Shown here: positions 36,137 through 53,525 of the stretch, piece after piece
How positions within the stretch are numbered: position 1 is the stretch's first letter
How the letters are laid out: the number at the start of each line of letters is the position of its first letter
Assembly (NCBI GenBank): GCA_002415845.1
Contig: DIAR01000010.1
Span: forward strand, 12,920 to 76,919
Reading direction: 5' to 3'
DNA from: Candidatus Woesebacteria bacterium UBA5073
GTDB lineage: Bacteria > Patescibacteriota > Microgenomatia > UBA8517
Length of the DNA: 64,000 bases
Translations under genes and position numbers: made by a program
The notes under the pieces: model-generated
What the model was told of the DNA's origin: nothing
Database searches by the model: none
Seen by the model: the letters and a program-made list of their open reading frames with translations, nothing else

Positions 36137-37855
36137 TTAATCAGTGTCGCCTGTCGGTGGGGCTATCGGCTCTTCTTCTTTAGTCGAAATCGGCCCGACT
36201 TTTCGGGAAATGAAGCGTTTCATTAGATTAAAGAAAAAACCAACCTCTTTGGACTTTAACAAAACCGAAATGCCCAAATAAACGATTCCGCCCAGGATAA
36301 TAACAACAATTGTTAGGATTAAAAGGTTGGTGGTGTAGCGGGTATCCAAAACAAATTTCTCAAAATGGATATTCTCAATCCCTAAGCCACCCATAAAAGA
36401 AAGTCTTTTAACCCAAACCGAACGGTCAAAAAATTTCAGGATAAAAAACATGACCAAACCGGAACAAACCGAAGAAAAAATAACTTTTAAGATTTCTAAT
36501 AATTGTTTGGCAACTATCCCATCACCAACTCTTTTTAGAATTAAGCAAAACAGTGTGGTTGCCTGAATAAAAGAACCCAAGGTGAAAGCTGCCGCCAGTC
36601 CCCAAGCGGGAAGGTGAAAAACCCGAATGAGAACAAAGTCGGCAATGATGTTAACGGTAATGGCGGATAAAGAAATGATGACTGGCGTCTTGGTGTCATG
36701 CAGGGCATAAAAGGCTCTAGCCAATAAAGCGGAGGTGACCTGAAAGACAACTCCAACGGCAAAGGCTGATACAACCATCCCCGTTTGAACCGTCGCCTCC
36801 CAGGAAAAAAGGTCCGTTCCATAAATAAGTCTGACAATCGGAATTCTTAAAACAATCAAGGTAACGGCAATTGGAGTAACCAAAAAAACCATCTGATTGA
36901 GGGCATTAAAAAGGGTTTTTTTGAATTCCACCGGATTGTCGGCTTGTCTGGAAAGAGTCGGCAGGGCCGCTTTGGCAATTGAGGTTCCAAAGAGACCAAC
37001 CGGCAAAAGCTGGATTGAATTACCAAAAGTAAAAAAAGTATATGAGGCAGTGGAAATCATGGAAGCCAAGAAAAGTTCGACTGATTTGGCTACTTGTAAA
37101 AAGGACACTTCAATAATCCTAGGAAGTGCCAACTTCCCGATCTTTCTAACTTCATCTGTCAATTTTAAACTAAAATGAAAACGAAAACCGAGTTTAATCG
37201 CCAGGGGCAACTGAATTAAAAAGTGAAGACCGGCCCCAATCACCACGCCGTAAACCGGCGCCATCAAGCCATATTTGGGAGCAAAAAAGATGGTTCCCAA
37301 AATAATCCCCAAGTTATAAAAAAGAGGGGCAATAGCCGGAACCAGAAAGCGCCGCAAGGATTCCAACACGGCCGTCATGACATAGGAGATAACAAAAAAA
37401 CCCTGAGCCGCAAATAATAATCGGGTCATTAAAACAATCTTGTCCCGATGTTCCAAACTAAACCCCGGCGTCAAAATACCGTACAGCTGGTTGGCGAAAA
37501 CAATAATAACAACGGCCAGAACCAAAAAGATGAGCATCCCGATATTGGCCACCGTTGAAGCAATTTGCCAGGCTTCTTTCCGACCTTTTTTCAAAGCTCT
37601 GGTAAAAACCGGAATAAAGGCCGAAGAAAAAGTGCCGAAAATCAAAACCTCAAAAACCAGATCGGGTAAACGGAAGGCAGCAAAAAACAAAGACAAATCA
37701 CCGGGAACAAAAAAATGGGCCAGTGTTCTTTGCCTTACCAGGCCTAAAACTCGGGAGGCCACTACCATCAACATAATAATGGTGGCGGCTGATAAGACCG
37801 AAGACTGTTGGGAAAGAAAAATCTTTTTTCCTTTGTTAATAAGTTTATTGACCAT
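36137..37855 (-). CDS. murJ: Lipid II flippase MurJ/MviN
   Basis: 572 aa. Polytopic, with a typical MurJ N-terminus (LSAATIIMLMVVASRVLGLVRQRTLAHFF) and 14 predicted helices. Confidence 0.85.
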   Translation of the reverse strand: MVNKLINKGKKIFLSQQSSVLSAATIIMLMVVASRVLGLVRQRTLAHFFVPGDLSLFFAAFRLPDLVFEVLIFGTFSSAFIPVFTRALKKGRKEAWQIASTVANIGMLIFLVLAVVIIVFANQLYGILTPGFSLEHRDKIVLMTRLLFAAQGFFVISYVMTAVLESLRRFLVPAIAPLFYNLGIILGTIFFAPKYGLMAPVYGVVIGAGLHFLIQLPLAIKLGFRFHFSLKLTDEVRKIGKLALPRIIEVSFLQVAKSVELFLASMISTASYTFFTFGNSIQLLPVGLFGTSIAKAALPTLSRQADNPVEFKKTLFNALNQMVFLVTPIAVTLIVLRIPIVRLIYGTDLFSWEATVQTGMVVSAFAVGVVFQVTSALLARAFYALHDTKTPVIISLSAITVNIIADFVLIRVFHLPAWGLAAAFTLGSFIQATTLFCLILKRVGDGIVAKQLLEILKVIFSSVCSGLVMFFILKFFDRSVWVKRLSFMGGLGIENIHFEKFVLDTRYTTNLLILTIVVIILGGIVYLGISVLLKSKEVGFFFNLMKRFISRKVGPISTKEEEPIAPPTGDTD

Positions 37856-38282: not shown

Positions 38283-38858
38283 TTGATGGCTGCCCTTAAA
38301 AAAGTAATTAAAATTAATCTTTTACCCCAAGAAGAATTTGCCAAAAGTACTTTTGGGCGAATCTTAACTTGGGCCTTATCCGGTTTCAGAGTCATCGTTA
38401 TTGCCGTGGAACTGATAGTGATGGCGGCTTTCCTTTCCCGCTTTTGGCTCGACGCTAAAATTAACGATTTAAACGATGTTATCCGGCAAAAACAAGCTTT
38501 AATTTCTTCCCAAGGCGAGTTTGAAAAGAAATTCAGGGATATTCAAACCAGAATCACCATTTTTAGCGGAGCCAAAGCCATGGCTTCTACCCCCTCAACC
38601 GAACTGGAAAAAATTGCCGCTTTTCTGCCAATGGATGTTGCCCTTTCTTCATTTACCTTTAATGAAGGAAAGGTTCAGATAAAAGGTGTTGCCGGCAGTG
38701 AAATTTCGGTTGCCCAATTAATGGCCAATTTGGAAGGAACCAAGCAATACAAAGAGGTTCTTTTAACTTCCGTCGGCAATGACCCAAAAAATGAAGCCAT
38801 GATTACTTTTATCCTGGATTTAACACTGGGAACAACCGAACAAAAGAAAGGAACTTAA
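38283..38858 (+). CDS. pilN: Type IV pilus assembly protein PilN-like
   Basis: 191 aa. N-terminal KINLLPQEE motif characteristic of PilN, a single TM helix, a coiled-coil segment and a periplasmic domain. Confidence 0.5.
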   Translation: MMAALKKVIKINLLPQEEFAKSTFGRILTWALSGFRVIVIAVELIVMAAFLSRFWLDAKINDLNDVIRQKQALISSQGEFEKKFRDIQTRITIFSGAKAMASTPSTELEKIAAFLPMDVALSSFTFNEGKVQIKGVAGSEISVAQLMANLEGTKQYKEVLLTSVGNDPKNEAMITFILDLTLGTTEQKKGT

Positions 38859-38861
38859 AGA

Positions 38862-39512
38862 ATGGCACCTAATTGGCGAAAAGAATATTCCCGTTATCAA
38901 ATCATCTTTGCAAAGGTTTTGGAAGTTTATCGAAAAAGACCGGACGTCAAAACTTTTCTTGAACTACTTCTGACTCTTTCGACTGTGGCTATTTTTACTG
39001 TTTTTGCTTTAAAACCAACTGTCATTACCATTATTCAACTTCTAAAAGACATTAAAACCAAGGAAACGGTCATTGTACAAATGGATACCAAAATCAAAGC
39101 CTTGGCTAGTGCCCAAAACCTTTTTTCCCAAGAAGCCAGAAGAATCGTTTATGTTACCAAGTCAGTTCCGGAAAAAGCCTTACCGGAAAACCTTGTCCGT
39201 GAATTGGAGGGTTTGGCCCAAAAGAACGCCGTCACCCTAAACAGTGTTTCAATTAACGAATTAACCCTTCTTGGGGTAAGTACCGAAAAGGTTAATCCAA
39301 AGGAACAAATTTTTCTTCAGGGAGCCAGTGGGCTAGCTTTTACCGCCAACACAAATGCCGACTTTACCGTCCTGCTACCTTTCTTAAAAGATTTGGAAAA
39401 GTTTTTGCGGCCGGTTGTTCTTGACAGCTTTTCCATAGCCACGGGTGTCAATCAAGAAACCAAAACAATCAACATGTCTATTTCAGGCAAGGTTCCGTAT
39501 TTGAGTAAATAA
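38862..39512 (+). CDS. pilO: Type IV pilus assembly protein PilO-like
   Basis: 216 aa. Short N-terminus, TM helix (LLLTLSTVAIFTVFAL), coiled-coil and a C-terminal alpha/beta domain. Lies immediately after the pilN-like gene, separated by 3 nt. Confidence 0.4.
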   Translation: MAPNWRKEYSRYQIIFAKVLEVYRKRPDVKTFLELLLTLSTVAIFTVFALKPTVITIIQLLKDIKTKETVIVQMDTKIKALASAQNLFSQEARRIVYVTKSVPEKALPENLVRELEGLAQKNAVTLNSVSINELTLLGVSTEKVNPKEQIFLQGASGLAFTANTNADFTVLLPFLKDLEKFLRPVVLDSFSIATGVNQETKTINMSISGKVPYLSK

Positions 39513-39514
39513 TT

Positions 39515-39847
39515 ATGCCCAAAAAACAAAAACCATTTTTTGTAAGAATTGTTATCCTTTCAACCGTCACGGCCATTGTCTGGGTTGGATCAACTATTTA
39601 TAAAACCGTTTCAAAAAAAGAGGAGCCGAACATTCCCGTCCAGATATTAGAACCCCTGACTCCGACTTTAGACAAAAAGGTACTTGACGAATTAGAGAAT
39701 CGGGTGTTTCTTGAAGAGAGCACAATCCCTGAAACAAGGGTTGAGGTTGGTGTTCAAGCAGCAACACCAAAACCGGTTGAAACGATTGCCCCGGAGGAAA
39801 CACCTGTGGCGACCGAATCAGGAGAAGAAGCAGGAGAAGAAATATGA
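39515..39847 (+). CDS. Small single-pass membrane protein, acidic Pro/Glu-rich C-terminus (hypothetical; PilP-like position)
   Basis: 110 aa. N-terminal TM helix (FFVRIVILSTVTAIVWVG). Overlaps the next gene by 4 nt. Confidence 0.35.
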   Translation: MPKKQKPFFVRIVILSTVTAIVWVGSTIYKTVSKKEEPNIPVQILEPLTPTLDKKVLDELENRVFLEESTIPETRVEVGVQAATPKPVETIAPEETPVATESGEEAGEEI

Positions 39848-41166
39848 AAAAAAGAAATAAAATCCCGACGGTTATTGGTTTCTTTGTCCTTGTCTTTGGA
39901 CTGGCAGCCGGAGTTTTTCTGGTTCAAACTAAACAACTTTTTAAGACCAGTGCCTCGCTTGATACTACCCCCTCTTCGGTTCAGATTTCCAACACGACCG
40001 ACAGTTCTTTTACAATTACCTGGCTTACTTCCAAGGAAACAACGGCTTTTGTTAAGTTGGGTGACAGTGCCAGTCTTGATCAAACTTTAACCGATGAAAT
40101 TGCCAACCCGTCTTTTACCCATTCGATAACCGCAAAGAATTTAACACCGGGGACTCCCTACTTTTTTAAAATCAATTCCGACGGAACTGATTTTGACAAC
40201 AACACTACTCCCTGGCAAGCCCAAACCGGACCTACCTTAACGGGAACGGCCGGCTTTAGCGTTAATGCTTCCGGAACGGTTTTGGACCAAACTTCAACTC
40301 CGGTTGAAAAGGCTTTGGTTTTCTTAAATATCGGTGGAGGGGTAACTCTTTCCGGAGTAACTTCCCAAAATGGCACCTGGGTTATTCCTATTAACGGCGT
40401 TAGATTATCCGATCTGTCGGGTTATCTTAATGTTGACCCGACCCAAACTTTAATTGAGATTTCGGTTAATGCCGGACCAAACGGAATTTCAACCGCCCAA
40501 ATATATCCTCAATCGGTGGCGGCCGTCTCAACTATGGTTTTGGGGCAAGTTCATGATTTCCGAAACCTGGCCCCGGCCAATGCCGGAGGCGTTCCTTCAT
40601 CCTCACTGGAAGCACCGCTTGAAACAACCGAGTCTTCAAGTTTTAATGTTGGTGATAAAGTTTCGACACCCTCGGCCAAAAAAGTAACTCTGGATAACAT
40701 TGATAACGGTGAAATCGTTAATACCCAAGACCCAGAATTCTTTGGTAAAGCACCGGCCGGAACAACCCTAACCATTACCGTTGAATCGGACGATCCGGTA
40801 ACCGAAACGGTTAAAGCTTCCGCAACTGGAACGTGGAATTGGGATCCGCCTAAAGATTTAACTCCGGGAGAACATAAAATTACCGTTAAATGGAAAGACA
40901 CCAGCGGTATTTGGCAAACCATAACCCGCACCTTTATTGTTTCAGCATCCGAAGGTCCGGCTTTTGTTTCCACCCCTTCAGCTACTTTAAAAGCAACTAA
41001 AACGGCAACACCAACAGCGACAAAAAAACCAACCGCTAAACCCTCTCCCACCGGGGCAGCCGACATCCCCGAATCTGGCAGCTTGACACCTACTCTCATC
41101 CTTTCTATTATGGGGGTAGGCGCAATTGCTATGGCTTTATTGTTTTGGAAGAAAGCCGAATATTAA
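39844..41166 (+). CDS. Secreted multidomain surface protein (FN3-like, carboxypeptidase-regulatory/CnaB-like and Ig-like domains) with C-terminal IPESG sorting-signal-like tail
   Basis: 440 aa. N-terminal signal or anchor helix. An FN3-like segment (SVQISNTTDSSFTITWLT...PGTPYFFKI), then a SGTVLDQTSTPVEKALVFL transthyretin-like domain, then an Ig-like domain. The C-terminus reads IPESGSLTPT, a 20-residue hydrophobic helix, then KKAEY. Confidence 0.6.
   Translation: MKKRNKIPTVIGFFVLVFGLAAGVFLVQTKQLFKTSASLDTTPSSVQISNTTDSSFTITWLTSKETTAFVKLGDSASLDQTLTDEIANPSFTHSITAKNLTPGTPYFFKINSDGTDFDNNTTPWQAQTGPTLTGTAGFSVNASGTVLDQTSTPVEKALVFLNIGGGVTLSGVTSQNGTWVIPINGVRLSDLSGYLNVDPTQTLIEISVNAGPNGISTAQIYPQSVAAVSTMVLGQVHDFRNLAPANAGGVPSSSLEAPLETTESSSFNVGDKVSTPSAKKVTLDNIDNGEIVNTQDPEFFGKAPAGTTLTITVESDDPVTETVKASATGTWNWDPPKDLTPGEHKITVKWKDTSGIWQTITRTFIVSASEGPAFVSTPSATLKATKTATPTATKKPTAKPSPTGAADIPESGSLTPTLILSIMGVGAIAMALLFWKKAEY
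41065..41163 (+). other. C-terminal tripartite sorting-signal-like segment: IPESG, hydrophobic helix, KKAEY
   Basis: Read directly from the translation. The DNA atccccgaatctgg is nearly identical to the equivalent site in the 43368-44039 gene. Confidence 0.5.
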
Positions 41167-41173
41167 AAACTAA

Positions 41174-42778
41174 ATGCCCAACGACCAGCCCGATCAAACC
41201 AACCCAATAAACACACTGCCCGTTAATCCACAACCGGTCACCCCACCAATTCCAGAACCAGCTGTTGTTACACCGCCAATGGATATTCCCCCAATGCCGG
41301 AACAATCAATGGAAACACCGATGGCAGACGGTTCAGCCGCTCCGTCAGTTGATATGCCACCAATGGTGACAGGCGGAGGACCAACCAAAACCAAGAAAAA
41401 ATTCGGAGGGGGAAAGTTTATTCCTACTATCTTAGGACTATTAATTCTCACCGGAGCCGTTAGTGCCGGAGCATATCTTGTTAGACAAAATCAGGATGTA
41501 AGAGAAAAAGCAGCTGGTGCTTGCGATGCTAGTCATGTTGGCGACAGGGAAATTACTAGTTGTACAACCACCGATGGATGTTCGGGGCAAATGACAAGTA
41601 CTTGCATTATGAATGGTCCAAATCTTTATTATTGGGTTGACGGCACTTGTGTCAAAAATGATGCAAATTGTCCAGAACCTGAGGTAACTTGTGTAAATAA
41701 AAATCAGAGTTGTGCCACACAACCCTGTTGTGAAGGCCAAGGAACTTGCCAAACTACCCCTTATGGAAAAGTCTGTGCAGATCCAACCTGTACTGCCGGA
41801 CAAACCAAATGTCAGGCCGAGGGATCGTCGTTCTTTGAATATACATGTCAGAATGGAGGTTTTGTTAAAACAAAGACTTGTCCTGAAGGATGTAGCGGAA
41901 ACGTTTGTGCAAATACGGCAACTTGTGTAAATCTTAGCCAAACTTGTAGTGATTCAAAACCCTGTTGTGAAGGCCAAGGAACTTGCCAAACTACCCCTTA
42001 TGGAAAAGTCTGTGCACAACCAACCTGTACTGCCGGACAAACCAAATGTCAGGCCGAGGGATCGTCTTATTTCCAATATAATTGTGACAATGGAGGTTTT
42101 GTTAAAACAAAAAATTGTGGAACTGCAGGATGCAATGGAAACGTTTGTGCGACAAGTTCGAACACTTGTACAACTACTGGTGATTGTGTGTCTTTCTGCA
42201 ATCCGGACAACCCAGCATGTTGTGGTGGCGGAAGCGACTTGCAAAATTGTAGCGAACCTGGGTGTAAGTCGGCCAGTTGTCAGTTAAACCAGGGGAAAAA
42301 GGAATGTTATTGCACCGGCACAAATTTATGTACAAATTGGATCGAAAATTGGAGTGTTTGTACGACAGCCGGAAACACGAATTCTTGTACGCCAAACAGT
42401 AAAAAATGTTATCAAACCAGATTTTGTGCCACCCCGGGAATTAATGAATATCAAATTGCTGAATGTGATTGTGGAACTGTTGTAGTTTATCCACAGTGTA
42501 GTGCCGTTAAAGCTTATAAAACCGACTGGACTGCCCTTAATACGACTCAGCTTTCAGCTCTTGCTCCCGGAACAGTGGTTAGATTTACGGTTTTAGGAGC
42601 CAACGGTACTTTTACCCAAGCCAGATTTAAAATAACCGGAGACACTACCTGGAGAACACCGGTTACGACCAAGAAACTTAGTACCGATGAGTTTTATACG
42701 GAATACACTATACCGACAACAGGTGGAACAATTACGGTTGAAGCCCAGGTGGGAACATCAACCGATGCTTGGTATTAA
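41174..42778 (+). CDS. Cysteine-rich type II membrane protein: Pro-rich cytoplasmic N-terminus, one TM helix, large extracellular Cys-rich domain with two tandem roughly 80-aa repeats
   Basis: 534 aa. N-terminal MPNDQPDQ...PPMVTGGG...KKKFGGGK, then the TM helix FIPTILGLLILTGAVSAGAYLV, then the YLVRQNQDVREKAAGA motif. About 60 Cys residues follow. Repeat 1 is CVNKNQSCATQPCCEGQGTCQTTPYGKVCADPTCTAGQTKCQAEGSSFFEYTCQNGGFVKTKTC; repeat 2 is CVNLSQTCSDSKPCCEGQGTCQTTPYGKVCAQPTCTAGQTKCQAEGSSYFQYNCDNGGFVKTKNC. Confidence 0.6.
   Translation: MPNDQPDQTNPINTLPVNPQPVTPPIPEPAVVTPPMDIPPMPEQSMETPMADGSAAPSVDMPPMVTGGGPTKTKKKFGGGKFIPTILGLLILTGAVSAGAYLVRQNQDVREKAAGACDASHVGDREITSCTTTDGCSGQMTSTCIMNGPNLYYWVDGTCVKNDANCPEPEVTCVNKNQSCATQPCCEGQGTCQTTPYGKVCADPTCTAGQTKCQAEGSSFFEYTCQNGGFVKTKTCPEGCSGNVCANTATCVNLSQTCSDSKPCCEGQGTCQTTPYGKVCAQPTCTAGQTKCQAEGSSYFQYNCDNGGFVKTKNCGTAGCNGNVCATSSNTCTTTGDCVSFCNPDNPACCGGGSDLQNCSEPGCKSASCQLNQGKKECYCTGTNLCTNWIENWSVCTTAGNTNSCTPNSKKCYQTRFCATPGINEYQIAECDCGTVVVYPQCSAVKAYKTDWTALNTTQLSALAPGTVVRFTVLGANGTFTQARFKITGDTTWRTPVTTKKLSTDEFYTEYTIPTTGGTITVEAQVGTSTDAWY
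41690..42170 (+). repeat. Intragenic tandem direct duplication, two copies of about 240 bp with long identical nucleotide stretches
   Basis: For example, ccctgttgtgaaggccaaggaacttgccaaactaccccttatggaaaagtctgtgca occurs at about 41721 and again at about 41961. actgccggacaaaccaaatgtcaggccgagggatcgtc also occurs twice. This explains the near-duplicate spurious ORFs at 41712-41930 and 41949-42287. Confidence 0.85.
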
Positions 42779-42784
42779 AAATAT

Positions 42785-43342
42785 ATGAATAATTCTAAAA
42801 AGAAAATCTCAAGTTTTGTAATTCTGTTTGCCACGGTTATTTTGGCAGGTGTTGCCATCTTTACGGCTGTAAGACTTTATCAATTAAGACAACAGGCCGT
42901 TGCCCCTAATGTTCCTACCAGTAAACCAAAGGCAGCTGATAATGCCAGCAGTTGTCTTTTAACTTTTACCATTTCCGTTTCCTCGACTTCCCCGTCGCCG
43001 ACGGCAACATCGTCCTCTCAACCGACACCAACGGCTACGGCAGTGGCGACAGTGACCCCCACTCCAACCTCAACCGGTGGAACACCAAACAATTGTGGTG
43101 GCACCTGCGGCTCAAATGCCAACTGCAACTCGGCCCTTATTTGTTATTCCGGTTTTTGCCGAAATCCATCTTGTACTTCAGACACCGATTGTGTCTGCGG
43201 AACAACAGCGCCGACACCCACTAAAACAGCTGCACCAACCGAAGAACCTTCCTTACCAGATGCCGGAGTATCAACACCAACCCTCTTTGGCTTTGGAGCA
43301 GGCATAATTCTTCTGATTGTCTCTCTTGCTCTTGCCCTTTAG
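42785..43342 (+). CDS. Small secreted Thr/Pro-rich protein with an 8-Cys knot-like module and C-terminal LPDAG sorting-signal-like tail
   Basis: 185 aa. N-terminal anchor or signal (FVILFATVILAGVAIFTAV) followed by RLYQLRQQA. A T/P-rich linker. The Cys-rich module is NNCGGTCGSNANCNSALICYSGFCRNPSCTSDTDCVCG. The C-terminus is LPDAGVSTPTLFGFGAGIILLIVSLALAL. Confidence 0.55.
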   Translation: MNNSKKKISSFVILFATVILAGVAIFTAVRLYQLRQQAVAPNVPTSKPKAADNASSCLLTFTISVSSTSPSPTATSSSQPTPTATAVATVTPTPTSTGGTPNNCGGTCGSNANCNSALICYSGFCRNPSCTSDTDCVCGTTAPTPTKTAAPTEEPSLPDAGVSTPTLFGFGAGIILLIVSLALAL

Positions 43343-43367
43343 TCTCTTTTATCGGTATAGTTAAAAC

Positions 43368-44039
43368 ATGCCAACAGATAATCAGAATCCTGCCAATCCT
43401 CTGCCACCTGAAGCACCGATGATGGTAACGGGTGGAGGGAAAGCTAAACAAAAAGTAAATTTCAAAACCATTGCCCTGATTATCGGTATATTTGTCCTTT
43501 TGGGTGGAATCGGTACCGGCTATTACCTTCTTCAACAAAATCAAGACATCAGAAAAAGAGCCCAGGGTGGTGAGGAACAGTGCACCGTATCCCAATGTCC
43601 ATCTGACGACGATCCAAATCGTCTGGCTGAATGTTCTGATTTGGATAATACATATAATATTTCTGTTTGTAGCGAAGAAAGGGCGGGTCAAATTGTTACT
43701 TGTGACGGAGAACCTTTTTGTTGTCCTTATGCTGGTGGAGACTGGACAAACGACACAACTGAATGTGGAAGCTCCCGAACAGCAACACCCACGGCAACGG
43801 CAAAACCAACTGCTACAGCTACCGCTGCATCTGGTGCAACTTTAACTCCTACCCCGACATCAACCGGCTCAAGCGGTGTTAAAACCCCTACCCCAACACC
43901 AACACCAAGAAAAACCGGGTCGACCACCACAACCGCAACACCCGCACCCATCCCCGAATCCGGTGTTTCTACTCCAACCATTGTCGGACTTGGTTTAGGA
44001 GCCCTGCTTCTTCTTGTTTCGCTTGCCCTAGCTATCTAA
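43368..44039 (+). CDS. Small secreted Cys-rich, Thr/Pro-rich protein; paralogous N-terminal anchor module (MVTGGG, TM, YLLQQNQDIRKRAQGG) and C-terminal IPESG sorting-signal-like tail
   Basis: 223 aa. N-terminal MPTDNQNPANPLPPEAPMMVTGGGKAKQK, the TM helix, then YLLQQNQDIRKRAQGG; compare the 41174 gene. A Cys-rich module with 10 Cys, a T/P/A-rich linker, and the C-terminus IPESGVSTPTIVGLGLGALLLLVSLALAI. Confidence 0.55.
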   Translation: MPTDNQNPANPLPPEAPMMVTGGGKAKQKVNFKTIALIIGIFVLLGGIGTGYYLLQQNQDIRKRAQGGEEQCTVSQCPSDDDPNRLAECSDLDNTYNISVCSEERAGQIVTCDGEPFCCPYAGGDWTNDTTECGSSRTATPTATAKPTATATAASGATLTPTPTSTGSSGVKTPTPTPTPRKTGSTTTTATPAPIPESGVSTPTIVGLGLGALLLLVSLALAI

Positions 44040-44043
44040 AGAG

Positions 44044-46497
44044 TTATCTCCAGGAGATTAACCAATAATATGATTTATCCAACCAAAGAGGAATTTGAAG
44101 TCCTGCCCAATGGGGATAAAAATAGAAAAACAACAGAAGGGTAATTCCCAGAACCGGAAGGATCAGTTTTTCATTTTTTCTTAAAACAAAACCGGACGCC
44201 AGACACATAAAAGGAACCGCGGGCAAATAGTGATAGAAAAACATAATCCTGGGCGACATCATCCAGGGAACAAAAAAGATCAGATAAGAAAAGATAACCA
44301 AAGCCAGCTTTTTATTCTTTTCGATAAAAGCATAATAAAAAGACATGATAACGGAAGTTAAACCAAACCAAAAGACGGCCGGATTCCCGAGATTATAGAT
44401 TCTGGCTACATATCCATTAACTTCATCGCTGGTATACAAATAGACCGGCCGAATCAAGAAAGGCCAACTTAAAGCCTGTGAGGTATACGGATGTGTCGCT
44501 TTCAAACCGGTATGGTACCACCACATCTGTTTTTGGACTCCCCAAAAAATATCCAAGCCGTGGCCCGTTAAAAACATGGGCGTATAAGAAGCCAAATAAA
44601 TAAGAAGCGGCACAACAGCAAAAGAAAAAAGGGACAGATCAAATTTTTTCTTTCTGGATAACCAAATCAGAAAAAGAATCGGCAGACAATACAAAGATGA
44701 CCACTTGGAAGCAAGGGCTAAACCAAAGGCAACGGCTGAAAGAAAATTCTTTTTTTGTAAGAAGAGATAAACCGTCAAAAGAATGAAAAACAAAACATAA
44801 CTGTCATTCATCCCTATCCGGCTCATCGTTAAAAACAAACCGTCCATAGAAAAAAAGAATGAGGCAATAAGCGCCAGTATTTCATCTTTGAATAATTTCT
44901 TGGCCAAGAAGTAAACCAGGATTGTGCTTCCGACGCCCAAAAGAGCTCCCGGAATTCGCCAGCCAAAAGCGTTCTCACCAAAGACAAGCATCCCCAACCA
45001 CATCCCCAATTTAGCCAACGGCGGATGCGTCCATTCATAGGCAAAACCTTCCGGTGGTGTGTTCCACCATTCCCAAGCAGCTACATTACCATTAAGCATT
45101 TGTCTGGCGGTAAAAGCATGATAAACCTCATCAAAATACTCGCTCTCTGGTTTATTCAAAAACAAAACTCGGGAAAAAAAAGCAAAGACAACAATTAAAA
45201 CAAAAAAGATTTTGATTAGTTTGGGATTTAATTTAATTTTGGGGAATCCTGCTTTTTCTTTGGGTAGCTTAAAACTTTTATTTTTAATGGAAAGATAAAA
45301 GTTTTTAATTTTCAACAGATAATTGGCCTTTTGTCCCAAAATTACTTCTTTTAAAAGAAGAGAGAAAGCAGCCAAATTAGCGATAATAAAAAGCTTGATA
45401 ATCGGTTCTGAGAAAATCTCCTTAAAATCATTAGTAATCCAAACATAGGAATAGGCCAGATTGGCAACATAAGTTAGTGATAAAACCAGATAAACCAGAA
45501 TCAGGTTGGGTAGGGAAATTGCAGCCACTAAAAGCGGTGCCAAAATTGGCAAAAGGTGTCTTTCGTGCATACGGGTCAAAAACAAAAAGGCCGACAAAAG
45601 AACTAAGGCAACCGGCAAATATTTATCTTCCCTATTCTTGGACTTTAAAAGATAAACGCCAAAAGTTAATGAAACCAAAAAGAGGCCAACGTACGATAAC
45701 GGTATTTGGGTCAGGTCTGATTTCCAGAAACCAAAAAGGCCCCAGAAATTAAAGGCATTAACCGAACCGTACGGATACTGGTTCAAAGTTACGGAAAGTC
45801 TTTCCGCTATAAAAGATAAAAGCGGTTGTCCATCCAGGAATGGAACAAAGCCTAAAGAAAAAATTGCTAAACCAACAACCCCATATAAGACAAGGTTGAC
45901 TATTTTTGTTTTGTTTTTAATTAAAAAATAAATTATGACCGGTAAAATAAATCCTGCCTGTGGTTTAATCAGCGTTCCCAACGATAAGGTAATGGCCGAG
46001 AAAAGCCAGTTCTTTTCCAAAAGATAAACGGCCAAAAGAATAAACAGAGCCGAAAGAGAATCAACCTGACCCCAAAGAGTTGAGTTGGTAATAATCGCCG
46101 GATTAAAAAAATAAAGACTGGCTAAAATTAGACTCCATTTCTCCTCCAGTTTTTTTCTGGCAATTTTAAAAATCAAAAAGCCGGTCAATAAATCCGCCAT
46201 AATCGCCGGCAATTTATAAAGTAGCACTTGGGGAAGAATTGATAGTTGGTTTATCTTTCCTAAAAGAAACAACAAATAGGGATACCCCGGAAGGTAATCC
46301 GACCAGCCCAAATAATATTTAGAAAAACCTTCATCAACCAAAATATTGCTCCAGGCCAAAAAGGTATTGAAGTCAAGTTGTAGCGTTCCGAAAAAGGAAA
46401 GAACAATCCTTAAGGTAAGAGCCGTCAGGATTAAAAACAGAATCTTGCTTTCAAGCAGTTTATTTAACTTCGTAAATTTTAACGCTATTGTTTTCAT
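44044..46497 (-). CDS. Two-module polytopic membrane protein; the C-terminal half is a GT-C glycosyltransferase of the PMT/ArnT (GT39/GT83) type
   Basis: 817 aa with more than 20 predicted helices. The second half carries a PMT-like first-loop motif (SEYFDEVYHAFTARQM ... EWTHPPLAKLG ... RIPGALLGVGSTILVYFLAKKLF ... MNDSY). The N-terminal half is another polytopic domain (NILVDEGFSKYYLGWSDYLPGYPY). Confidence 0.55.
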   Translation of the reverse strand: MKTIALKFTKLNKLLESKILFLILTALTLRIVLSFFGTLQLDFNTFLAWSNILVDEGFSKYYLGWSDYLPGYPYLLFLLGKINQLSILPQVLLYKLPAIMADLLTGFLIFKIARKKLEEKWSLILASLYFFNPAIITNSTLWGQVDSLSALFILLAVYLLEKNWLFSAITLSLGTLIKPQAGFILPVIIYFLIKNKTKIVNLVLYGVVGLAIFSLGFVPFLDGQPLLSFIAERLSVTLNQYPYGSVNAFNFWGLFGFWKSDLTQIPLSYVGLFLVSLTFGVYLLKSKNREDKYLPVALVLLSAFLFLTRMHERHLLPILAPLLVAAISLPNLILVYLVLSLTYVANLAYSYVWITNDFKEIFSEPIIKLFIIANLAAFSLLLKEVILGQKANYLLKIKNFYLSIKNKSFKLPKEKAGFPKIKLNPKLIKIFFVLIVVFAFFSRVLFLNKPESEYFDEVYHAFTARQMLNGNVAAWEWWNTPPEGFAYEWTHPPLAKLGMWLGMLVFGENAFGWRIPGALLGVGSTILVYFLAKKLFKDEILALIASFFFSMDGLFLTMSRIGMNDSYVLFFILLTVYLFLQKKNFLSAVAFGLALASKWSSLYCLPILFLIWLSRKKKFDLSLFSFAVVPLLIYLASYTPMFLTGHGLDIFWGVQKQMWWYHTGLKATHPYTSQALSWPFLIRPVYLYTSDEVNGYVARIYNLGNPAVFWFGLTSVIMSFYYAFIEKNKKLALVIFSYLIFFVPWMMSPRIMFFYHYLPAVPFMCLASGFVLRKNEKLILPVLGITLLLFFYFYPHWAGLQIPLWLDKSYYWLISWR

Positions 46498-48424
46498 AGA
46501 CTTTTTTTATATTTTGGTTGTTGTCAAAAAGAGTTTCGCTGTTCGGATTTTTATCCCTTTCCTCACCACCCAAGTAAATATACCTTGCATTATACTTGGC
46601 AAGAACGGTTTTTGTGTAATTAAAATCATCGGCTTTTTGATACAGGGACTCAATATCTTCAAGCCTGGCAAAAACATTATCCTCACCCGTATTATAACCG
46701 TGTGAATACGGCCAGTTAATATAGGAAAGAACCCTCAGCCTTCCCCCGATTTCCGAAACGGCCGAATGAACGGTCGGGTAAGTTATAAAAACCGATTTCT
46801 GGGGCGTAGCCCTTCTTATAAAAAGACCGGCCGCAAGTTCATCAAGAGAATAGCCCATGTTTTTATTTAAGGTGCTGTTAGTCAGGGTTAAAAAGGAGGA
46901 AAAGGTGGTCACCAAAATAAGAAGGCCGAACAAAATTTCCAAAACCAATTTCTTTCTAAAAATAAGATCCAAAAACCAAAAAGAAACAATCGACATAAAA
47001 ACAACCATGAAATAAAAAAACTTAAACATGTCGCCTTTGTAAATCGTAAAGCGAACGAAATACGGTATAGCGAAAAAAACTAAAGACAACGAAACAAGAA
47101 GGAAGAATTCTTTTTTAATTGGTTTCTTTTGAAAAAATCGGACAATTACCCAAAATAAAGACAAAAGGGTCAGGAAAAAAGGCAAACCGAAATTAGAAGC
47201 AATAAACCTTAAGTGCCAAAAAATGTTTTTCTCTCTTTCCCAAGGACCAAAGGAAAAATTTTCTTTAACCAGACTAAAAAAGGATTGCTGATTAACGCTT
47301 CTGTTCGAAAATAAAAGATAGCAGGAAGCAAAAACAGCCAAAAAGATTAAGGCACTCTTAACAAAAAACTTAAATTTCTTTTTTTGAAAGAAAAAAAGGG
47401 TGGTAATCGTAAAGACAATCAAAGAAACAACAACCGCAAAAAATTGAAACTTAATTAAAAAACCGGCGATCAAACCAGCTAGAAAAATAATTCTAAGATC
47501 CTTCTTCTTATAAGCGAAAATTGATAAAAGTAAAATGATAATTACGGCCGGAAGGCCAATCATCATCGGTCGATTTTGCAAAAAGTAATCAGCCATGTTG
47601 GCCATCTGAAAAAGCTGATCATATTCCATCGAATATTCATGACTGGAAAGAAGCCCAACTATATTTTTTATTAGAGACAATTTGCCAAAGTTCTGCCAAA
47701 AATCGTAAATGAATTTAACAAAAAGATAACTACTGAAAAGAGTTCCAGAAAAGGCCGAGGCCAAAGCAATTATTTTCTTTTTGGTTAACTCATACACCAA
47801 GCCGTAAATTGAAAGAGTAAAAATCAGGGCAAAAAAGGGATTGTCATAAACTAAAATTCTTGGGAAAAAACGGCCATAAAGAGTGGAAATAATGGCCGAA
47901 TGAAAATCGGCAAAGTAGTAATAAGACAGGGAAACACCGCTGTAATAGGGCGCTTGGGGTGGAAAATTGCCCTGGGTAAGACTTTGAATAATTCCCTGAT
48001 GCATGGCCGTGTCCTGCCAATTAACCGAGGCCATAACAATGTAACCTTCATACTCAGTGAAGATGGCGGGATATAAAGCCAGAAAGAACAAGAGAAAGAT
48101 AAAAACGCCCATAAACAAAGCCTCTTTATGATTTTGAAAATATTTTTTAAAAACCCGTCCGATACTTTTGTAAGAACAAACCAGCCAGGGAATAAAAAAG
48201 GCGAAAGAAAGAAGAATTGAATAACGGGAAAAACCAACCAATAAACTAACCAAGTACACCAAATAAGAGGACAGAATCACGCTTAAAAGAAAGATCGATG
48301 GTAGTTTAATCCTTACCGGAAGCTTAGGAAAAAACGTTTCGATTACATAGAAACCCGGAATGAAAAAGGTAAAGATAAAACCCAAGATTAAAAGACTGTG
48401 GTCTATGATATTGCCGGCCATCAT
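46460..48424 (-). CDS. Polytopic membrane protein with C-terminal soluble domain; probable GT-C-fold glycosyltransferase-like (family undetermined)
   Basis: 654 aa. About 13 hydrophobic helices, then a roughly 140-aa hydrophilic C-terminal domain. Overlaps the downstream gene by 38 nt. Confidence 0.35.
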   Translation of the reverse strand: MMAGNIIDHSLLILGFIFTFFIPGFYVIETFFPKLPVRIKLPSIFLLSVILSSYLVYLVSLLVGFSRYSILLSFAFFIPWLVCSYKSIGRVFKKYFQNHKEALFMGVFIFLLFFLALYPAIFTEYEGYIVMASVNWQDTAMHQGIIQSLTQGNFPPQAPYYSGVSLSYYYFADFHSAIISTLYGRFFPRILVYDNPFFALIFTLSIYGLVYELTKKKIIALASAFSGTLFSSYLFVKFIYDFWQNFGKLSLIKNIVGLLSSHEYSMEYDQLFQMANMADYFLQNRPMMIGLPAVIIILLLSIFAYKKKDLRIIFLAGLIAGFLIKFQFFAVVVSLIVFTITTLFFFQKKKFKFFVKSALIFLAVFASCYLLFSNRSVNQQSFFSLVKENFSFGPWEREKNIFWHLRFIASNFGLPFFLTLLSLFWVIVRFFQKKPIKKEFFLLVSLSLVFFAIPYFVRFTIYKGDMFKFFYFMVVFMSIVSFWFLDLIFRKKLVLEILFGLLILVTTFSSFLTLTNSTLNKNMGYSLDELAAGLFIRRATPQKSVFITYPTVHSAVSEIGGRLRVLSYINWPYSHGYNTGEDNVFARLEDIESLYQKADDFNYTKTVLAKYNARYIYLGGEERDKNPNSETLFDNNQNIKKVYENNSVKIYEVK

Positions 48425-48442
48425 ATTATTATATAAAGAATC

Positions 48443-49603
48443 ATGTTAAAAAAATGGGGTTTTTGGTTTCTTTTGTTTTTGGGACTCCTTTTAATTATTT
48501 ATTGGGCTACTTCGCCCGGTAATACACCGTATAACTATTTTGTTAAGTTGAGTGAAGCTTTCCTGAAAGGCCAATACTGGTTAACCGATAACCCGCCCTG
48601 GCTTAACGAATTAATTAGCGGTCCAAACGGTAAATACTTTATTCCATATCCGCCCATGCCGGCGATACTTGCCCTTCCTTTTGTTTTTATTTTCGGTGGG
48701 GAATTCCCCCAGCAAATTCTTGGCCACCTGCTGGGTGTCGGCATTGTTCTTTTCACCGTTAAATCCGCCCTTCTTGTTAAGAAAAATTATAAAATTGCCG
48801 TTTATATTGGTCTTTTAACCGGTCTTGGAACAATTGTTTGGTATTTGGCCTCCAACGGTTCCGTCTGGTATCTGGGACAAATTTCGGCGGCTTTTTTCCT
48901 CACTGTGGCCATCAACGAAACCCTGGATAAAAAAAGGCCTTTTGTTGTAGGCCTTCTTATCGGAGCAGCCTACCTTTCCCGGGTTAATACTTTTGTCTGT
49001 CTACCTTTTTTCTTTTTCCTAATGATTAAAGACAAACGTTTTTTCAAGAAAAGTATTCTGCTTGCCCTGGGATTATTGCCTTTTTTGGGTTTTAATTTTC
49101 TCTATAATTTTCTGCGTTTCGATGTTATTTGGGATAAAGGTTATAGCCTAATCCCCGGTGTTTTATCAGAACCATGGTATCAAAAAGGTCTTGTTTCCCT
49201 TTCTTATATTCCCAGGCACTTAAAAATTCTTTTTCTTTCCTTACCAAAATTCATAAATAAATTTCCTTTTGTTTATCCTTCCTGGGGAGGCCTAGCAATT
49301 TGGATAACGACACCGGCTTTTATTTATGCTTTATGGGCTCCCTGGAAAGAAAAACTGACAAAACTTTCTTGGTTGGCTATCGCCTTAATCTCAATTATCA
49401 TTTTCTCCCACGGAACAACCGGCTTTACTCAATTCGGATATCGCTTTGCGGTTGATTTTTATCCTTTCCTTCTTCTCTTAACCATTAAAGGAATTGCTAA
49501 AACGGGCTTAAAATGGCATCACTGGGTTTTACTCACCTTAAGTATATTGGTTAATTTCTGGGGTGTTCTTTTTATTAATAAATTAGGGTTTGTCAGTTTC
49601 TAG
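48443..49603 (+). CDS. Polytopic membrane protein, possible GT-C/DUF2029-like glycosyltransferase (hypothetical)
   Basis: 386 aa with roughly 9-11 predicted TM helices. No soluble domain. Confidence 0.3.
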   Translation: MLKKWGFWFLLFLGLLLIIYWATSPGNTPYNYFVKLSEAFLKGQYWLTDNPPWLNELISGPNGKYFIPYPPMPAILALPFVFIFGGEFPQQILGHLLGVGIVLFTVKSALLVKKNYKIAVYIGLLTGLGTIVWYLASNGSVWYLGQISAAFFLTVAINETLDKKRPFVVGLLIGAAYLSRVNTFVCLPFFFFLMIKDKRFFKKSILLALGLLPFLGFNFLYNFLRFDVIWDKGYSLIPGVLSEPWYQKGLVSLSYIPRHLKILFLSLPKFINKFPFVYPSWGGLAIWITTPAFIYALWAPWKEKLTKLSWLAIALISIIIFSHGTTGFTQFGYRFAVDFYPFLLLLTIKGIAKTGLKWHHWVLLTLSILVNFWGVLFINKLGFVSF

Positions 49604-50666
49604 TCAGAAGATCGCTTACCCAAGCGTTCACTTTCGTCCAATCTCCGTCTTTGGGAATAAAAACATATTGATTGTCATATTCTGTGGTTGGTTTGGGATT
49701 AACTAAAAAGTCCTCGGATAAAACAACCGATCGGATATGACTACTCGCCTCTAAAAACTTTCGTCCCAAGATAGCCACCGCCGATGAATCAATATCCGTC
49801 TCGACCGAATTTACAAAAACTTTCCAAATACCAAACATTTTTTTAGGCGAAAGAAAAACAGACGGGTTTAACATTTTTGTTTTAATGGCCGAAAGCATTT
49901 TTTGCTGACGGGCTTCCCTGGCTAAATCCGTTCCCTCAACACCTGAAGAGTTCCTCGACCGGACATACTTTAAAGCCGTTGTTCCATCCATATGCATTTT
50001 TCCTTTTTCAAAAGTTATTGTTTCATAACGGCACTTATATTCCTTATCCCCGTCACATAAATCGTTTTCTTTACCATAAATGGGATATTTTTCATCGGTA
50101 AAAGAATTTTCAACCATGACGTCAATTCCTCCGATCACATCGATTGCTTTGGTAAAACCGGAAAAATCAATTACCAGCCCGTAATGAATCGGTTGTCCCA
50201 CAATTTCCCCAACCAGTGATTTAGCTAAATCCATTCCGCCCCATTCTTCTTTTTGTTTTCCCCAAAAATAGGCACTGTTTAACTTGGCCCTAATTTCCGG
50301 TACCCAGATATCTCTTGGTAAAGAAACCATTACGAGGGATGGTTTCTCAATGGAAAGCGAGGCGAAAATAATCGTGTCGGTTAAGTCGGGGGCCGTAAAA
50401 CCAGTTCCGCTTCGTCCCAGAATTAAAATATTGGTTCTCCCGGCAAAAGTTTTAATTTTTGTTTCCGGCGTAAACAAGAAATCGGTGATCAGGTGGCGAT
50501 TATTATATTTACCAAAAAAGAAACCGGCAAAAAGAAGAACGGAAACAAGGGAAACAAAAATGAGAAGAATTAGATTGAGCATCGCCTGTTTTTTTCTTCC
50601 CCCAATAGCCCCAACATCACCCTGCCTTTGATCTTTAGAATTGCTATACTGCATCGATATGACCAT
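49593..50666 (-). CDS. LytR-CpsA-Psr (LCP) family phosphotransferase (cell-wall glycopolymer ligase)
   Basis: 357 aa. N-terminal TM helix, then the LCP core: NILILGRSG...DTIIFASL...SLPRDIWV...KLNSAYFWG...IHYGLVIDFSGF..IDVIGGIDV. The true start may be an internal Met, since the annotated 5' end overlaps the divergent pcrA start. Confidence 0.8.
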   Translation of the reverse strand: MVISMQYSNSKDQRQGDVGAIGGRKKQAMLNLILLIFVSLVSVLLFAGFFFGKYNNRHLITDFLFTPETKIKTFAGRTNILILGRSGTGFTAPDLTDTIIFASLSIEKPSLVMVSLPRDIWVPEIRAKLNSAYFWGKQKEEWGGMDLAKSLVGEIVGQPIHYGLVIDFSGFTKAIDVIGGIDVMVENSFTDEKYPIYGKENDLCDGDKEYKCRYETITFEKGKMHMDGTTALKYVRSRNSSGVEGTDLAREARQQKMLSAIKTKMLNPSVFLSPKKMFGIWKVFVNSVETDIDSSAVAILGRKFLEASSHIRSVVLSEDFLVNPKPTTEYDNQYVFIPKDGDWTKVNAWVSDLLTRN

Positions 50667-52562: not shown

Positions 52563-53525
52563 ATGGAGGAAACAAATAAAGAGGCATTTAACCAAGTAGC
52601 TACCCATCCACTACAGTCCTGGGCTTGGGGCGAATTTCGAAAAGCCTGGGGTAATCAGGTTGTTCGATTCCCCTTCGGTCAAATAACTGTTCACAAACTT
52701 CCTTTCTTACCCTTTTCGATTGCCATGTTTATTAAGGGTCCGAAACCAAACAAAGAAATGTTTTCAGTTTTAAAAGAATATGCCGCCAAAAACAAAATTA
52801 TCTTTATTCGAATGGAACCGAATATTGAAAAGGACGAAAAAATAATCTCTTTCCTAAAACAAAATCGTTGTCAGCCGGGACGAAGGCTTTTTACACCAAC
52901 CACTTTCTTAATTGATTTGGCCAAATCCGAGGAAGAACTTCTGAAAAGTTTCTCTTCCAAAACCCGCTATAACATCAGACTAGCCCAAAAACACGGCGTT
53001 ACTGTTTCCGAAGATAATTCCGAGAAAGCTTTTAAGGCTTATTTAAGATTAACCGAAGAAACAACAACCAGACAAGGTTTTTATGCCCATTCACAAAAAT
53101 ATCATCAGTTAATGTGGAATACTTTGCGGAAGGAAAACATTGCCCACCTTCTCACTGCTTCTTATAAAGGAGAATTTATTACCACCTGGATTCTTTTTGT
53201 CTGGAAAGATCATCTTTATTACCCTTATGGCGCCTCAACCGAAAAGTTTAAAAACGTTATGGCTAATAATTTAATGATGTGGGAAGCCATAAAACTTGGG
53301 AGGAAATTAAACCTTACCACTTTTGATTTGTGGGGCCGGGAAGAGGGCAAGGGCTTCACTAAATTTAAAGAAGGTTACAACCCCAAAGTGTTTGCATTTA
53401 TCGGCACTTGGGATTTAATCACTAGCCCACTTTATTACCCCTACACCATCCTGGAAAAGTTAAGGTGGGTTGTCTTAAAAGCTTTAGCCAAATTAGGTTT
53501 TGCCAAAGCCAAATTTAATGCCTGA
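52563..53525 (+). CDS. FemABX-family aminoacyl-tRNA-dependent peptidyltransferase (peptidoglycan cross-bridge formation)
   Basis: 320 aa. SKTRYNIRLAQKHGV motif, then the WGREEGKGFTKFKEGYNPKV C-terminal motif, similar to the GLYRFKKGFGG motif of Fem proteins. Confidence 0.6.
   Translation: MEETNKEAFNQVATHPLQSWAWGEFRKAWGNQVVRFPFGQITVHKLPFLPFSIAMFIKGPKPNKEMFSVLKEYAAKNKIIFIRMEPNIEKDEKIISFLKQNRCQPGRRLFTPTTFLIDLAKSEEELLKSFSSKTRYNIRLAQKHGVTVSEDNSEKAFKAYLRLTEETTTRQGFYAHSQKYHQLMWNTLRKENIAHLLTASYKGEFITTWILFVWKDHLYYPYGASTEKFKNVMANNLMMWEAIKLGRKLNLTTFDLWGREEGKGFTKFKEGYNPKVFAFIGTWDLITSPLYYPYTILEKLRWVVLKALAKLGFAKAKFNA

Follow-up and report, generated by a model that had tools for sequence, protein, structure and literature searches.

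The 64 kb of DNA analyzed here (the window) come from Candidatus Woesebacteria bacterium UBA5073, an uncultured, ultra-small member of the Microgenomates within the candidate phyla radiation (CPR), and contain at 39844-44039 four tightly spaced plus-strand open reading frames (ORFs), called ORF1 to ORF4. Metagenomes are the origin of other contigs with an identical or nearly identical sequence. Three of the encoded proteins, ORF1, ORF3 and ORF4, are probably sortase substrates, which carry a cell-wall sorting signal specific for the lineage of Woesebacteria and Microgenomates. The enzyme reading these tails would most likely be the conserved sortase encoded in the same window.

The three proteins end with a pentapeptide, a short extension and a hydrophobic helix. 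In ORF1 the tail comprises the residues 408-440 (41065-41163, plus strand) and reads IPESG-SLTPT-LILSIMGVGAIAMALLFW-KKAEY. ORF3 terminates with LPDAG-VSTPT-LFGFGAGIILLIVSLALAL (43253-43339, plus strand) and ORF4 with IPESG-VSTPT-IVGLGLGALLLLVSLALAI (43950-44036, plus strand), and in both cases the Gly-rich helix is the end of the protein. Two six-frame scans of the whole window, using the C-terminal helix and/or an [ILVM]Px[STAG]G motif, revealed no other ORF with such a tail. The original prediction, made from the DNA letters alone, had assigned a shared tail to three of the four genes and had described nearly identical DNA at two of the sites. The ORF listing and the six-frame scans confirm the former, and the latter is reflected by the 14-mer ATCCCCGAATCYGG, which is present in exactly two copies in the window, at 41065 and 43950, and in none of 100 shuffles. 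Outside this 14-mer, the tail DNA shows synonymous differences. Since the neighboring codons differ, the likeness of the ORF1 and ORF4 tails is kept at the peptide level. A recent gene conversion or DNA copy between both tails was considered as well and is ruled out, as only the 14-mer is common to them and the other codons differ.

To describe the tail beyond the window, ORFs were chosen in about 1.08 Mb of Microgenomates DNA only by the pattern G-x3-[PA][TS]-helix-end, which resulted in 111 non-redundant tails. Although this selection did not demand a Pro, 109 of the 111 tails contain one at P3, and the background of Pro in the adjoining linker columns is roughly 15-30%. The Gly at P1' is fixed across the tails. 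Furthermore, the tail is conserved in orthologues although their linkers are unalignable. The conservation of the tail is far beyond chance. The original prediction had proposed as its test that the signature should be present in other proteins and be kept across orthologues, which is what the 111 related ORFs and the orthologous tails display, and its motif is correct as the signature of a family. When the tail was used on its own, a profile search with a 44-aa tail alignment against a database of 5.8 billion proteins retrieved only five short fragments.

The 111 related tails split evenly into two classes of 55 members each. Class I, the type found in ORF1, has the signature [VTIQL]P[DE]SG-xLTPT followed by the helix and a basic tail. 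Class II, the type of ORF3 and ORF4, has the signature LPx[A>S>T>V]G-xx[W/L/T]PT followed by a Gly-rich helix as the protein end. At P4, class I contains Val (18), Thr (13), Gln (9), Ile (8) or Leu (6) and class II mainly Leu (40), with five Ile and five Val. At P1, Ser prevails in class I (44, next to eight Thr and two Ala) and Ala in class II (32, next to 14 Ser, six Thr and three Val). The position P4' is almost always Thr in class I (53) and is occupied by Trp (25), Leu (12) or Thr (9) in class II. After the helix, class I proteins mostly continue with five residues resembling WKKSEI, and in 52 of the class II proteins no residue follows. Among the metagenome orthologues, the commonest class I pentapeptide is VPDSG.

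A second sample consisted of 128 cluster representatives of ORF1 with a C-terminal helix. Here, P1 is Ser in 51, Ala in 39, Thr in 13, Pro in 11 and Val in six sequences, P3 is mostly Pro, the P' side reads x-L-T-P-T, and 93 of the 128 representatives possess a Lys or Arg within the last eight amino acids. The homologues of ORF4 all end with [ILV]Px[TS]G-xx[W/L/T]P[TS] and a helix, without a charged tail. The tail is not a textbook LPXTG signal and resembles LPxAG-type variants, in agreement with what had been proposed from the window alone.

Within the families the motif reaches classical forms. ORF1 orthologues with a Thr at P1 are LPETG (L015), IPQTG (L012), IPETG (P0141) and VPVTG with a basic tail, further Thr forms at orthologous positions are LPETG (L093) and TPETG with a basic tail, and ORF4 homologues display LPVTG, IPETG and VPETG. 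On the level of sequence, the orthologous tails form a continuous series from IPESG, VPDSG and LPxAG into LPETG, IPETG and VPVTG. The curated sorting-signal models point in the same direction, since those that ever match the tails are of the LPXTG type only. Against TIGR01167 (LPXTG_anchor, cut-off 15.9 bits), many tails reach 10-15 bits and the Thr-bearing orthologues 12-15 bits, and one orthologue passes, the ORF1 orthologue P0141 with its IPETG motif (16.9 bits). EF0750_LPXTG and LPXTG_double gave weak matches. The VPDSG-type tails did not match any model whatever, and the PEP-, VPDSG- (TIGR03778), PGF-, GlyGly- and MYXO-type CTERM models did not match at E<=10 with 20 tails or at E<=1 with the full proteins. 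Peptides that could serve as candidate sortase substrates are AADIPESGSLTPT, PSLPDAGVSTPT, VPDSGSLTPT and LPETGSLTPT.

A side observation concerns the region directly in front of the tail. Many of the ORF1 orthologues P0206-P0288 contain a doubled motif, PSTESG followed by [IV]PxSG. In the window, the positions 41035-41079 encode PSPTG-AAD-IPESG, which is comparable to this doubled motif, and the weak match of the LPXTG_double model was obtained with one ORF1 orthologue.

The sortase gene, which had been noticed in the original prediction, is located at 14698-15360 on the minus strand and encodes the candidate processing enzyme. It matches Pfam PF04203 with 82 bits (cut-off 26.6, E 3.8e-23), contains an N-terminal membrane anchor and a His129/Cys198/Arg213 triad, and these residues (the Cys within LTLVTC) are invariant among 34 sortase homologues. 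More than 3382 homologues were found, of which the top 120 are 63-86% identical and are named Woesebacteria or Patescibacteria. The gene order AlaRS-73x aa protein-sortase-RuvX-YceG-RpoB is fixed in all five genomes checked. The sortase and the block lie on one contig in the window as well as in GCA_022868165.1, where the sortase is found at 110.8-123.5 kb and the operon at 79.9-100.1 kb. At the level of PDB sequences and folds, the protein matches solved sortases of the classes A, C, D and E to a similar extent (fold E about 1e-7). An assignment to a class from structure was dropped, as the AlphaFold2 (AF2) model is of low confidence, with a mean predicted local distance difference test (pLDDT) score of 59, and fits these four classes to a similar degree. 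A sortase family near ubiquitous in Microgenomates has been described previously, and a Gram-positive-like envelope was discussed, without a description of the substrates (Meheust et al., 2019; PMC6744442).

The gene next to the sortase on its upstream side (15364-17568, minus strand) encodes a 734-aa protein, which weakly matches Baseplate_J-like proteins, and this arrangement was seen in the five genomes checked; in GCA_022868165.1 the stop of the 73x-aa protein overlaps the start of the sortase. This protein may be a partner of the sortase.

A Pfam scan of 28 ORFs of the window, a view limited to 64 kb of the genome, did not detect any exosortase, archaeosortase, rhomboid or CPBP domain. 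A reading of the tails as exosortase, archaeosortase or rhombosortase signals was rejected, since neither a CTERM model match nor such an enzyme domain was found in the scanned ORFs. Of the arrangement typical for sortase, exosortase or archaeosortase substrates that had been proposed originally, the sortase part is retained, whereas for the other enzymes matches to PEP-, VPDSG- or PGF-CTERM models and the enzyme domains are missing in these scans. Because of the continuity with LPXTG, the model matches, the absence of a rival CTERM signal or enzyme and the conserved sortase, the tails are best described as a variant of the known sortase signal. The view of the block as an undescribed surface-display system is not supported, because the tails grade into LPETG, IPETG and VPVTG, one of them passes LPXTG_anchor and the sortase is conserved.

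Several observations weigh against this assignment. Thr at P1, which characterizes most sortase signals, is found in a minority of the tails only, and the three tails of the window have Ser, Ala and Ser. About 11 of the 128 ORF1 representatives (~9%) are truly without Pro at P3, with ends such as YDSG, LTGSG and IVSG. The class II tails, those of ORF3 and ORF4 included, do not possess a positively charged retention tail, and the helix is Gly-rich (GxGxG) and conserved to an unusual degree, as would also be expected if it were retained and had a function of its own. All tails of the window are below the TIGR01167 cut-off, with 10.3 bits for ORF1 and no match for ORF3 and ORF4. On the side of the enzyme, the sortase is about 25 kb away from the block and not adjacent, and no class fits, as it stays below every curated cut-off of the classes A-F (55 of 160 bits for class C, 48 of 160 for E, 41 of 165 for D and 24 of 166 for F). 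Furthermore, a related genome (L004, 11583-12792) encodes a second type of sortase, which is 27% identical to the window sortase. This gene is located directly downstream of one for a 222-aa secreted protein ending with LAATG, a helix and NKHS, and 1.6 kb from an ORF4 homologue ending with IPETGTSWPT. Since this second sortase has its own LAATG substrate, a given tail may be handled by either enzyme, and at least some Microgenomates would therefore possess two sortase/signal pairs, as deduced from their genes.

The cargo of the four proteins is diverse. ORF1 (39844-41166, plus strand, 440 aa) consists of an N-terminal anchor, FN3-like, CarboxypepD_reg-like and Big_13 Ig-like domains (Pfam fn3/Pur_ac_phosph_N, CarboxypepD_reg and Big_13), a Thr/Pro/Ala linker and the class I tail. 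Its family is large: 3061 cluster representatives were obtained at E<=1e-3, and 519 at the stricter limit of E<=1e-30. ORF2 (41174-42778, plus strand, 534 aa) contains a Pro-rich cytoplasmic N-region, a transmembrane (TM) helix with a LVRQNQDVREKA motif, two Cys-rich modules of 79 aa, which are 75% identical to each other, and a conserved C-terminal domain; it does not carry a C-terminal sorting tail. ORF3 (42785-43342, plus strand, 185 aa) displays the conserved N-terminal anchor LAGVAIFTAVRLYQLRQQAVAPN, a Thr/Pro linker, a small Cys module and the class II tail. ORF4 (43368-44039, plus strand, 223 aa) displays an N-terminal anchor with a QQNQDIRKRA motif, an 8-Cys module of about 65 aa, a Thr/Pro linker and the class II tail. 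In homologues of ORF4 the cargo varies, being the 8-Cys module in some and cohesin domains in others.

The Pfam assignments and the comparison of the modules support the cargo proposed initially, namely FN3/Ig-like domains and small Cys modules on Thr/Pro linkers, and the statement that the modules cannot be assigned to a family holds for the Cys modules in Pfam, NCBIfam and a PDB fold search. Pfam gave significant matches neither for the Cys modules nor for the C-terminal domain of ORF2, and ORF2-4 did not reach the cut-off of any NCBIfam model. In the AF2 model of ORF4 the small Cys module is confident (pLDDT 78-91), and no PDB fold matched it at E<=0.001. The proteins of the ORF1, ORF3 and ORF4 families that were looked up are all called 'hypothetical protein' or are without a name. 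A tandem-repeat scan found nothing, and the promoter and terminator counts were not above those of the shuffles.

One could argue that the tails are simply unprocessed C-terminal anchors with a conserved juxtamembrane motif. The proteins would then be membrane-attached at both ends and form extracellular loops, perhaps packing on PilN, PilO (the membrane proteins encoded at the start of the operon, see below) or on each other via the GxGxG helix. This would be in line with the uncharged class II end and its conserved Gly-rich helix, with N-terminal TM and juxtamembrane segments that are conserved as strongly as the tails and look uncleavable, and with a P3 Pro that is dispensable in the ~9% of ORF1 orthologues mentioned above. 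However, neither an invariant Gly nor a near-invariant Pro, kept at a fixed distance of five residues before the helix, is required for a simple anchor, which would also not explain why the motif drifts to an exact LPETG in orthologues and why class I possesses the complete classical tripartite signal. The conserved sortase would in addition be left without an evident substrate in these genomes. An unprocessed anchor is thus considered unlikely. Quite improbable is a scenario in which the sortase polymerizes or joins the proteins into a fiber or sheath similar to the sortase-assembled pili of Gram-positive bacteria, with ORF1 as shaft or base and ORF3 and ORF4 as minor subunits. Class C is the closest class by score (55 bits) and solved class C enzymes rank among the best matches in the PDB, several substrates are encoded in one operon, ORF1 is built of Ig-like and transthyretin-like domains, and the two signal classes could mark separate fates as known for pilin and base subunits. 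Nevertheless, the class C score is far under its cut-off of 160 bits with the classes A, D and E matching about equally, and the sortase is single, embedded among core genes, of the housekeeping type and 25 kb off, which does not resemble a gene of a pilus island. Also, no CnaA/CnaB or pilin-motif signal appeared in the Pfam and NCBIfam scans, in which the pilin motif was not itself examined, and ORF3 is in some genomes (L012) barely more than a Thr/Pro thread.

As a further alternative, an enzyme encoded elsewhere in the genome, an unrecognized exosortase, rhombosortase or CPBP-type protease, might read the signal, and the tails would belong to a distinct system that resembles LPXTG. Here, the literal VPDSG as the most frequent class I pentapeptide, the class II tail without basic residues but with the helix-destabilizing Gly and Pro known from rhomboid substrates, and the restriction of the view to 64 kb of the genome would fit. 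This has to be set against the lack of any match to TIGR03778 or to the PEP-, PGF-, GlyGly- and MYXO-type CTERM models at E<=10, and of such an enzyme domain in the scanned ORFs of the window. Exosortases belong to the exopolysaccharide (EPS) systems of diderm bacteria, whereas the envelope genes found here are of the monoderm type, and the searched literature draws no link between these enzymes and CPR bacteria. A different enzyme is for these reasons very unlikely, and a lineage-specific sorting signal read by a sortase remains the preferred explanation.

A comparison with the classical LPXTG/SrtA system of S. aureus (TIGR01167) clarifies what is common and what is special. Similarities are the N-terminal export segment, the P3 Pro and P1' Gly just before the C-terminal helix, the basic tail of class I, a membrane-anchored Cys transpeptidase with a His/Cys/Arg triad in the genome and the wall-building genes nearby. 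In contrast to the classical signal, P1 is not Thr but Ser in class I and Ala in class II, P4 is Ile, Val, Thr or Gln as often as Leu, the P' side has the conserved extension x-x-[L/W/T]-P-T, and class II has an uncharged end with a GxGxG helix. Deviations of this kind have been observed before, as LPXAG and LPXSG occur as minority variants on surface proteins of Staphylococcus haemolyticus (PMC7137321) and IPXTG, FPXTG and LPXTS as minority variants in S. agalactiae (PMC8225981). The same changes at P1 (Ala, Ser) and P4 (Ile) are found there in organisms with a sortase as the sole sorting enzyme. In staphylococci and streptococci, however, these variants are rare beside an LPXTG majority, whereas here entire conserved families across a lineage carry Ser or Ala at P1 as a rule.

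A systematically shifted pentapeptide is also known from the class E sortase in Actinobacteria, which is a lineage-wide housekeeping enzyme and reads a LAXTG signal (PMC5148588). Similar to this system, the shift would here concern a lineage-wide housekeeping sortase, and the related genome described above has a second sortase beside a LAATG substrate. In class E the shift is located at P3 (Pro to Ala) and here at P1, and the window sortase reaches only 48 bits compared to the class E cut-off of 160.

The VPDSG-CTERM signal (TIGR03778) is a variant of the PEP-CTERM/exosortase system. Many ORF1 orthologues carry the literal VPDSG followed by a helix and basic residues; unlike VPDSG-CTERM, they show no match to the hidden Markov model (HMM) at E<=10, no exosortase was found in the scanned window ORFs, and a monoderm-type envelope and a sortase are present. 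In Actinomyces oris, the glycosylated surface protein GspA is anchored by a sortase and handled by a LytR-CpsA-Psr (LCP) enzyme together with the housekeeping sortase. Likewise, a housekeeping sortase, an LCP enzyme and Thr/Pro-rich, probably glycosylated substrates are combined in one neighborhood here, as read from the genes alone. The glycosyltransferase beside the block differs, being an O-mannosyltransferase of the protein O-mannosyltransferase (PMT) family.

Based on these comparisons, the following mechanism can be proposed. ORF1, ORF3 and ORF4 would be inserted by the Sec machinery via their conserved N-terminal hydrophobic segment, and the C-terminal helix would keep them in the membrane. 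The membrane-anchored sortase would then recognize [ILVT]-P-x-[S/A/T]-G, aided by the P' side x-x-[L/W/T]-P-T, and cleave the bond between P1 (Ser or Ala) and Gly, forming a thioacyl intermediate at P1. Subsequently, it would transfer the protein to a peptidoglycan precursor, with the lipid II cross-bridge as the probable acceptor, and FemAB genes are present. On the surface, Thr/Pro stalks would display Ig/FN3-type domains or small disulfide-rich modules, and the neighboring PMT would probably O-glycosylate these stalks.

The N-terminal segments require special attention. At the N-terminus of ORF1-4 and of their homologues, a basic n-region precedes a helix of about 20 aa (anchor regions 39844-39960, 41400-41500, 42785-42930 and 43440-43570, all on the plus strand). 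The TM helix and a polar juxtamembrane motif are unusually conserved in all tail-bearing proteins as well as in ORF2, in the window and in the loci L004-L101. Three forms can be distinguished, a TM helix with LVRQQQDIREKA, LAGVAIFTAxRLYQLRQQAVAPN (RLYQLRQQAVAPN.P) and IPTxIG...LVQxRQIFRLGAS, and the motif is common to unrelated cargo such as Cys modules and cohesin domains. The n-region of ORF2 comprises 85 aa, ORF3 has a Pro at +1 of AVA/P, and in the AF2 model of ORF4 the residues 32-68 form one continuous helix. The long n-regions and the Pro at +1 suggest that the N-terminal segments are uncleavable. Therefore, the mature proteins may bridge membrane and wall. Alternatively, the long n-regions and the Pro at +1 might indicate a second sorting signal at the N-terminus.

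The four genes do not stand alone. They had been described originally as a four-gene block, and while the genes are indeed tightly packed, they are the distal part of a seven-gene operon starting at 38283. The first gene (38283-38858, plus strand) encodes a PilN-like membrane protein, which matches Pfam PilN with 47.8 bits (cut-off 22.8) and contains an N-terminal INLLP (KINLLPQEEF). It is followed by a bitopic protein at 38862-39512 (plus strand), which is called PilO-like by position and topology only and did not match any Pfam, NCBIfam or PDB sequence. The third gene (39515-39847, plus strand) encodes a small N-terminally anchored protein of 110 aa, in which an LxPLxPxLD segment is conserved and the tail is acidic, and its stop overlaps the start of ORF1. 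The spacing of these upstream genes is 2-3 nt or a 4-nt overlap.

The order MurJ (minus strand), PilN-PilO-small protein-ORF1-ORF2-ORF3, PMT (minus strand) and, further on, LCP (minus strand) recurs in named genomes (L010, L012, L013, L014, L015 and L018), and in five named genomes a PilN-like gene is found upstream of ORF1. For a broader view, 80 metagenome loci were fetched by ORF1, and for each gene only loci whose contig reaches far enough were counted. PilN was present in 55 of 55 loci, PilO in 60 of 60 and always after PilN, and MurJ in 44 of 44. The small anchored protein was detected in 47/55 loci using tblastn, ORF2 in 27/31, ORF3 in 26/31 using BLAST, and PMT and LCP in 19/23 each. 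ORF4 is accessory, being missing from the block in several genomes checked and having homologues at other loci elsewhere.

The PilN- and PilO-like genes do not lie beside pilM, pilB, pilC or a pilin gene and are instead fixed to the genes of ORF1-3 in every locus seen. In the window, PilM, PilB, PilC and pilin domains were not detected in the ORFs scanned with Pfam, and the remaining ORFs were judged from their end sequences. The small protein after PilO holds the same position as PilP in pilMNOPQ operons. In L066, L072, L091 and L095, a conserved ORF of about 100 aa (YSYYPFDKFFPKSGRWS...GGFYLAPA), which is not present in the window, follows about 300 nt after the ORF3 orthologue.

The surroundings of the operon are rich in wall genes. 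The envelope genes identified with Pfam in the window are monoderm-like and wall-centered, namely MurJ (36137-37855, minus strand), MltG/YceG (13066-14064), an LCP enzyme as conserved neighbor (49593-50666, minus strand, E 1.5e-29) and two FemAB-family genes (52563-53525 and 53500-54315, plus strand, E 1.5e-25 and 1.2e-07). Due to the two FemAB genes, an interpeptide bridge can be expected in the peptidoglycan of this bacterium, and their products would build the cross-bridge, which is the usual sortase acceptor. Convergent with ORF4, a PMT-family protein is encoded at 44044-46497 on the minus strand (Pfam PMT_2, PMT and PMT_4TMC), followed by a DUF2298 protein (46460-48424, minus strand) and a 386-aa polytopic membrane protein without a Pfam match (48443-49603, plus strand). 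These three genes adjoin the block in most related loci, which points to a locus for the O-glycosylation of proteins at their Thr/Pro linkers, with the PMT as the likely glycosylating enzyme. A PMT in a CPR bacterium is worth noting by itself.

Going further, the seven-gene operon might represent one envelope machine specific for Microgenomates, in which type IV pilus alignment proteins are coupled to doubly anchored proteins, that is, proteins with a conserved uncleaved N-terminal anchor and a C-terminal wall linkage formed via the variant signal, or class II might be a signal apart, leading to a different fate or read by a different enzyme. This is a speculative proposal, and we think it rather doubtful. 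Within it, ORF1 and the small protein may be monoderm stand-ins for PilP/PilQ, or the doubly anchored proteins may form glycosylated tethers between membrane and wall.

A description of this signal, or of sortase substrates or their motif in Microgenomates, was not found in the searched literature, the coverage of which is incomplete. Novel compared to the known systems would be the lineage-wide Px[S/A]G signal with its conserved P' extension, the presence of two classes, one of them uncharged, and the PilN/PilO-linked operon beside an O-mannosyltransferase.

The CPR or Patescibacteria account for much of the diversity of bacteria and live in attachment to other cells, yet very little is known about the biology of their surface. 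The tails described here escape the curated LPXTG model. A defined signal, [ILVT]Px[S/A/T]G-xx[L/W/T]PT followed by a helix, would allow the prediction of surface proteomes for thousands of uncultured genomes. If the assignment is true, the lineage would possess a sortase that naturally prefers Ser or Ala at P1, which would be useful for sortase-mediated ligation. It would also join the PilN/PilO operon, the O-mannosyltransferase and wall anchoring in one picture of how these bacteria build an adhesive surface.

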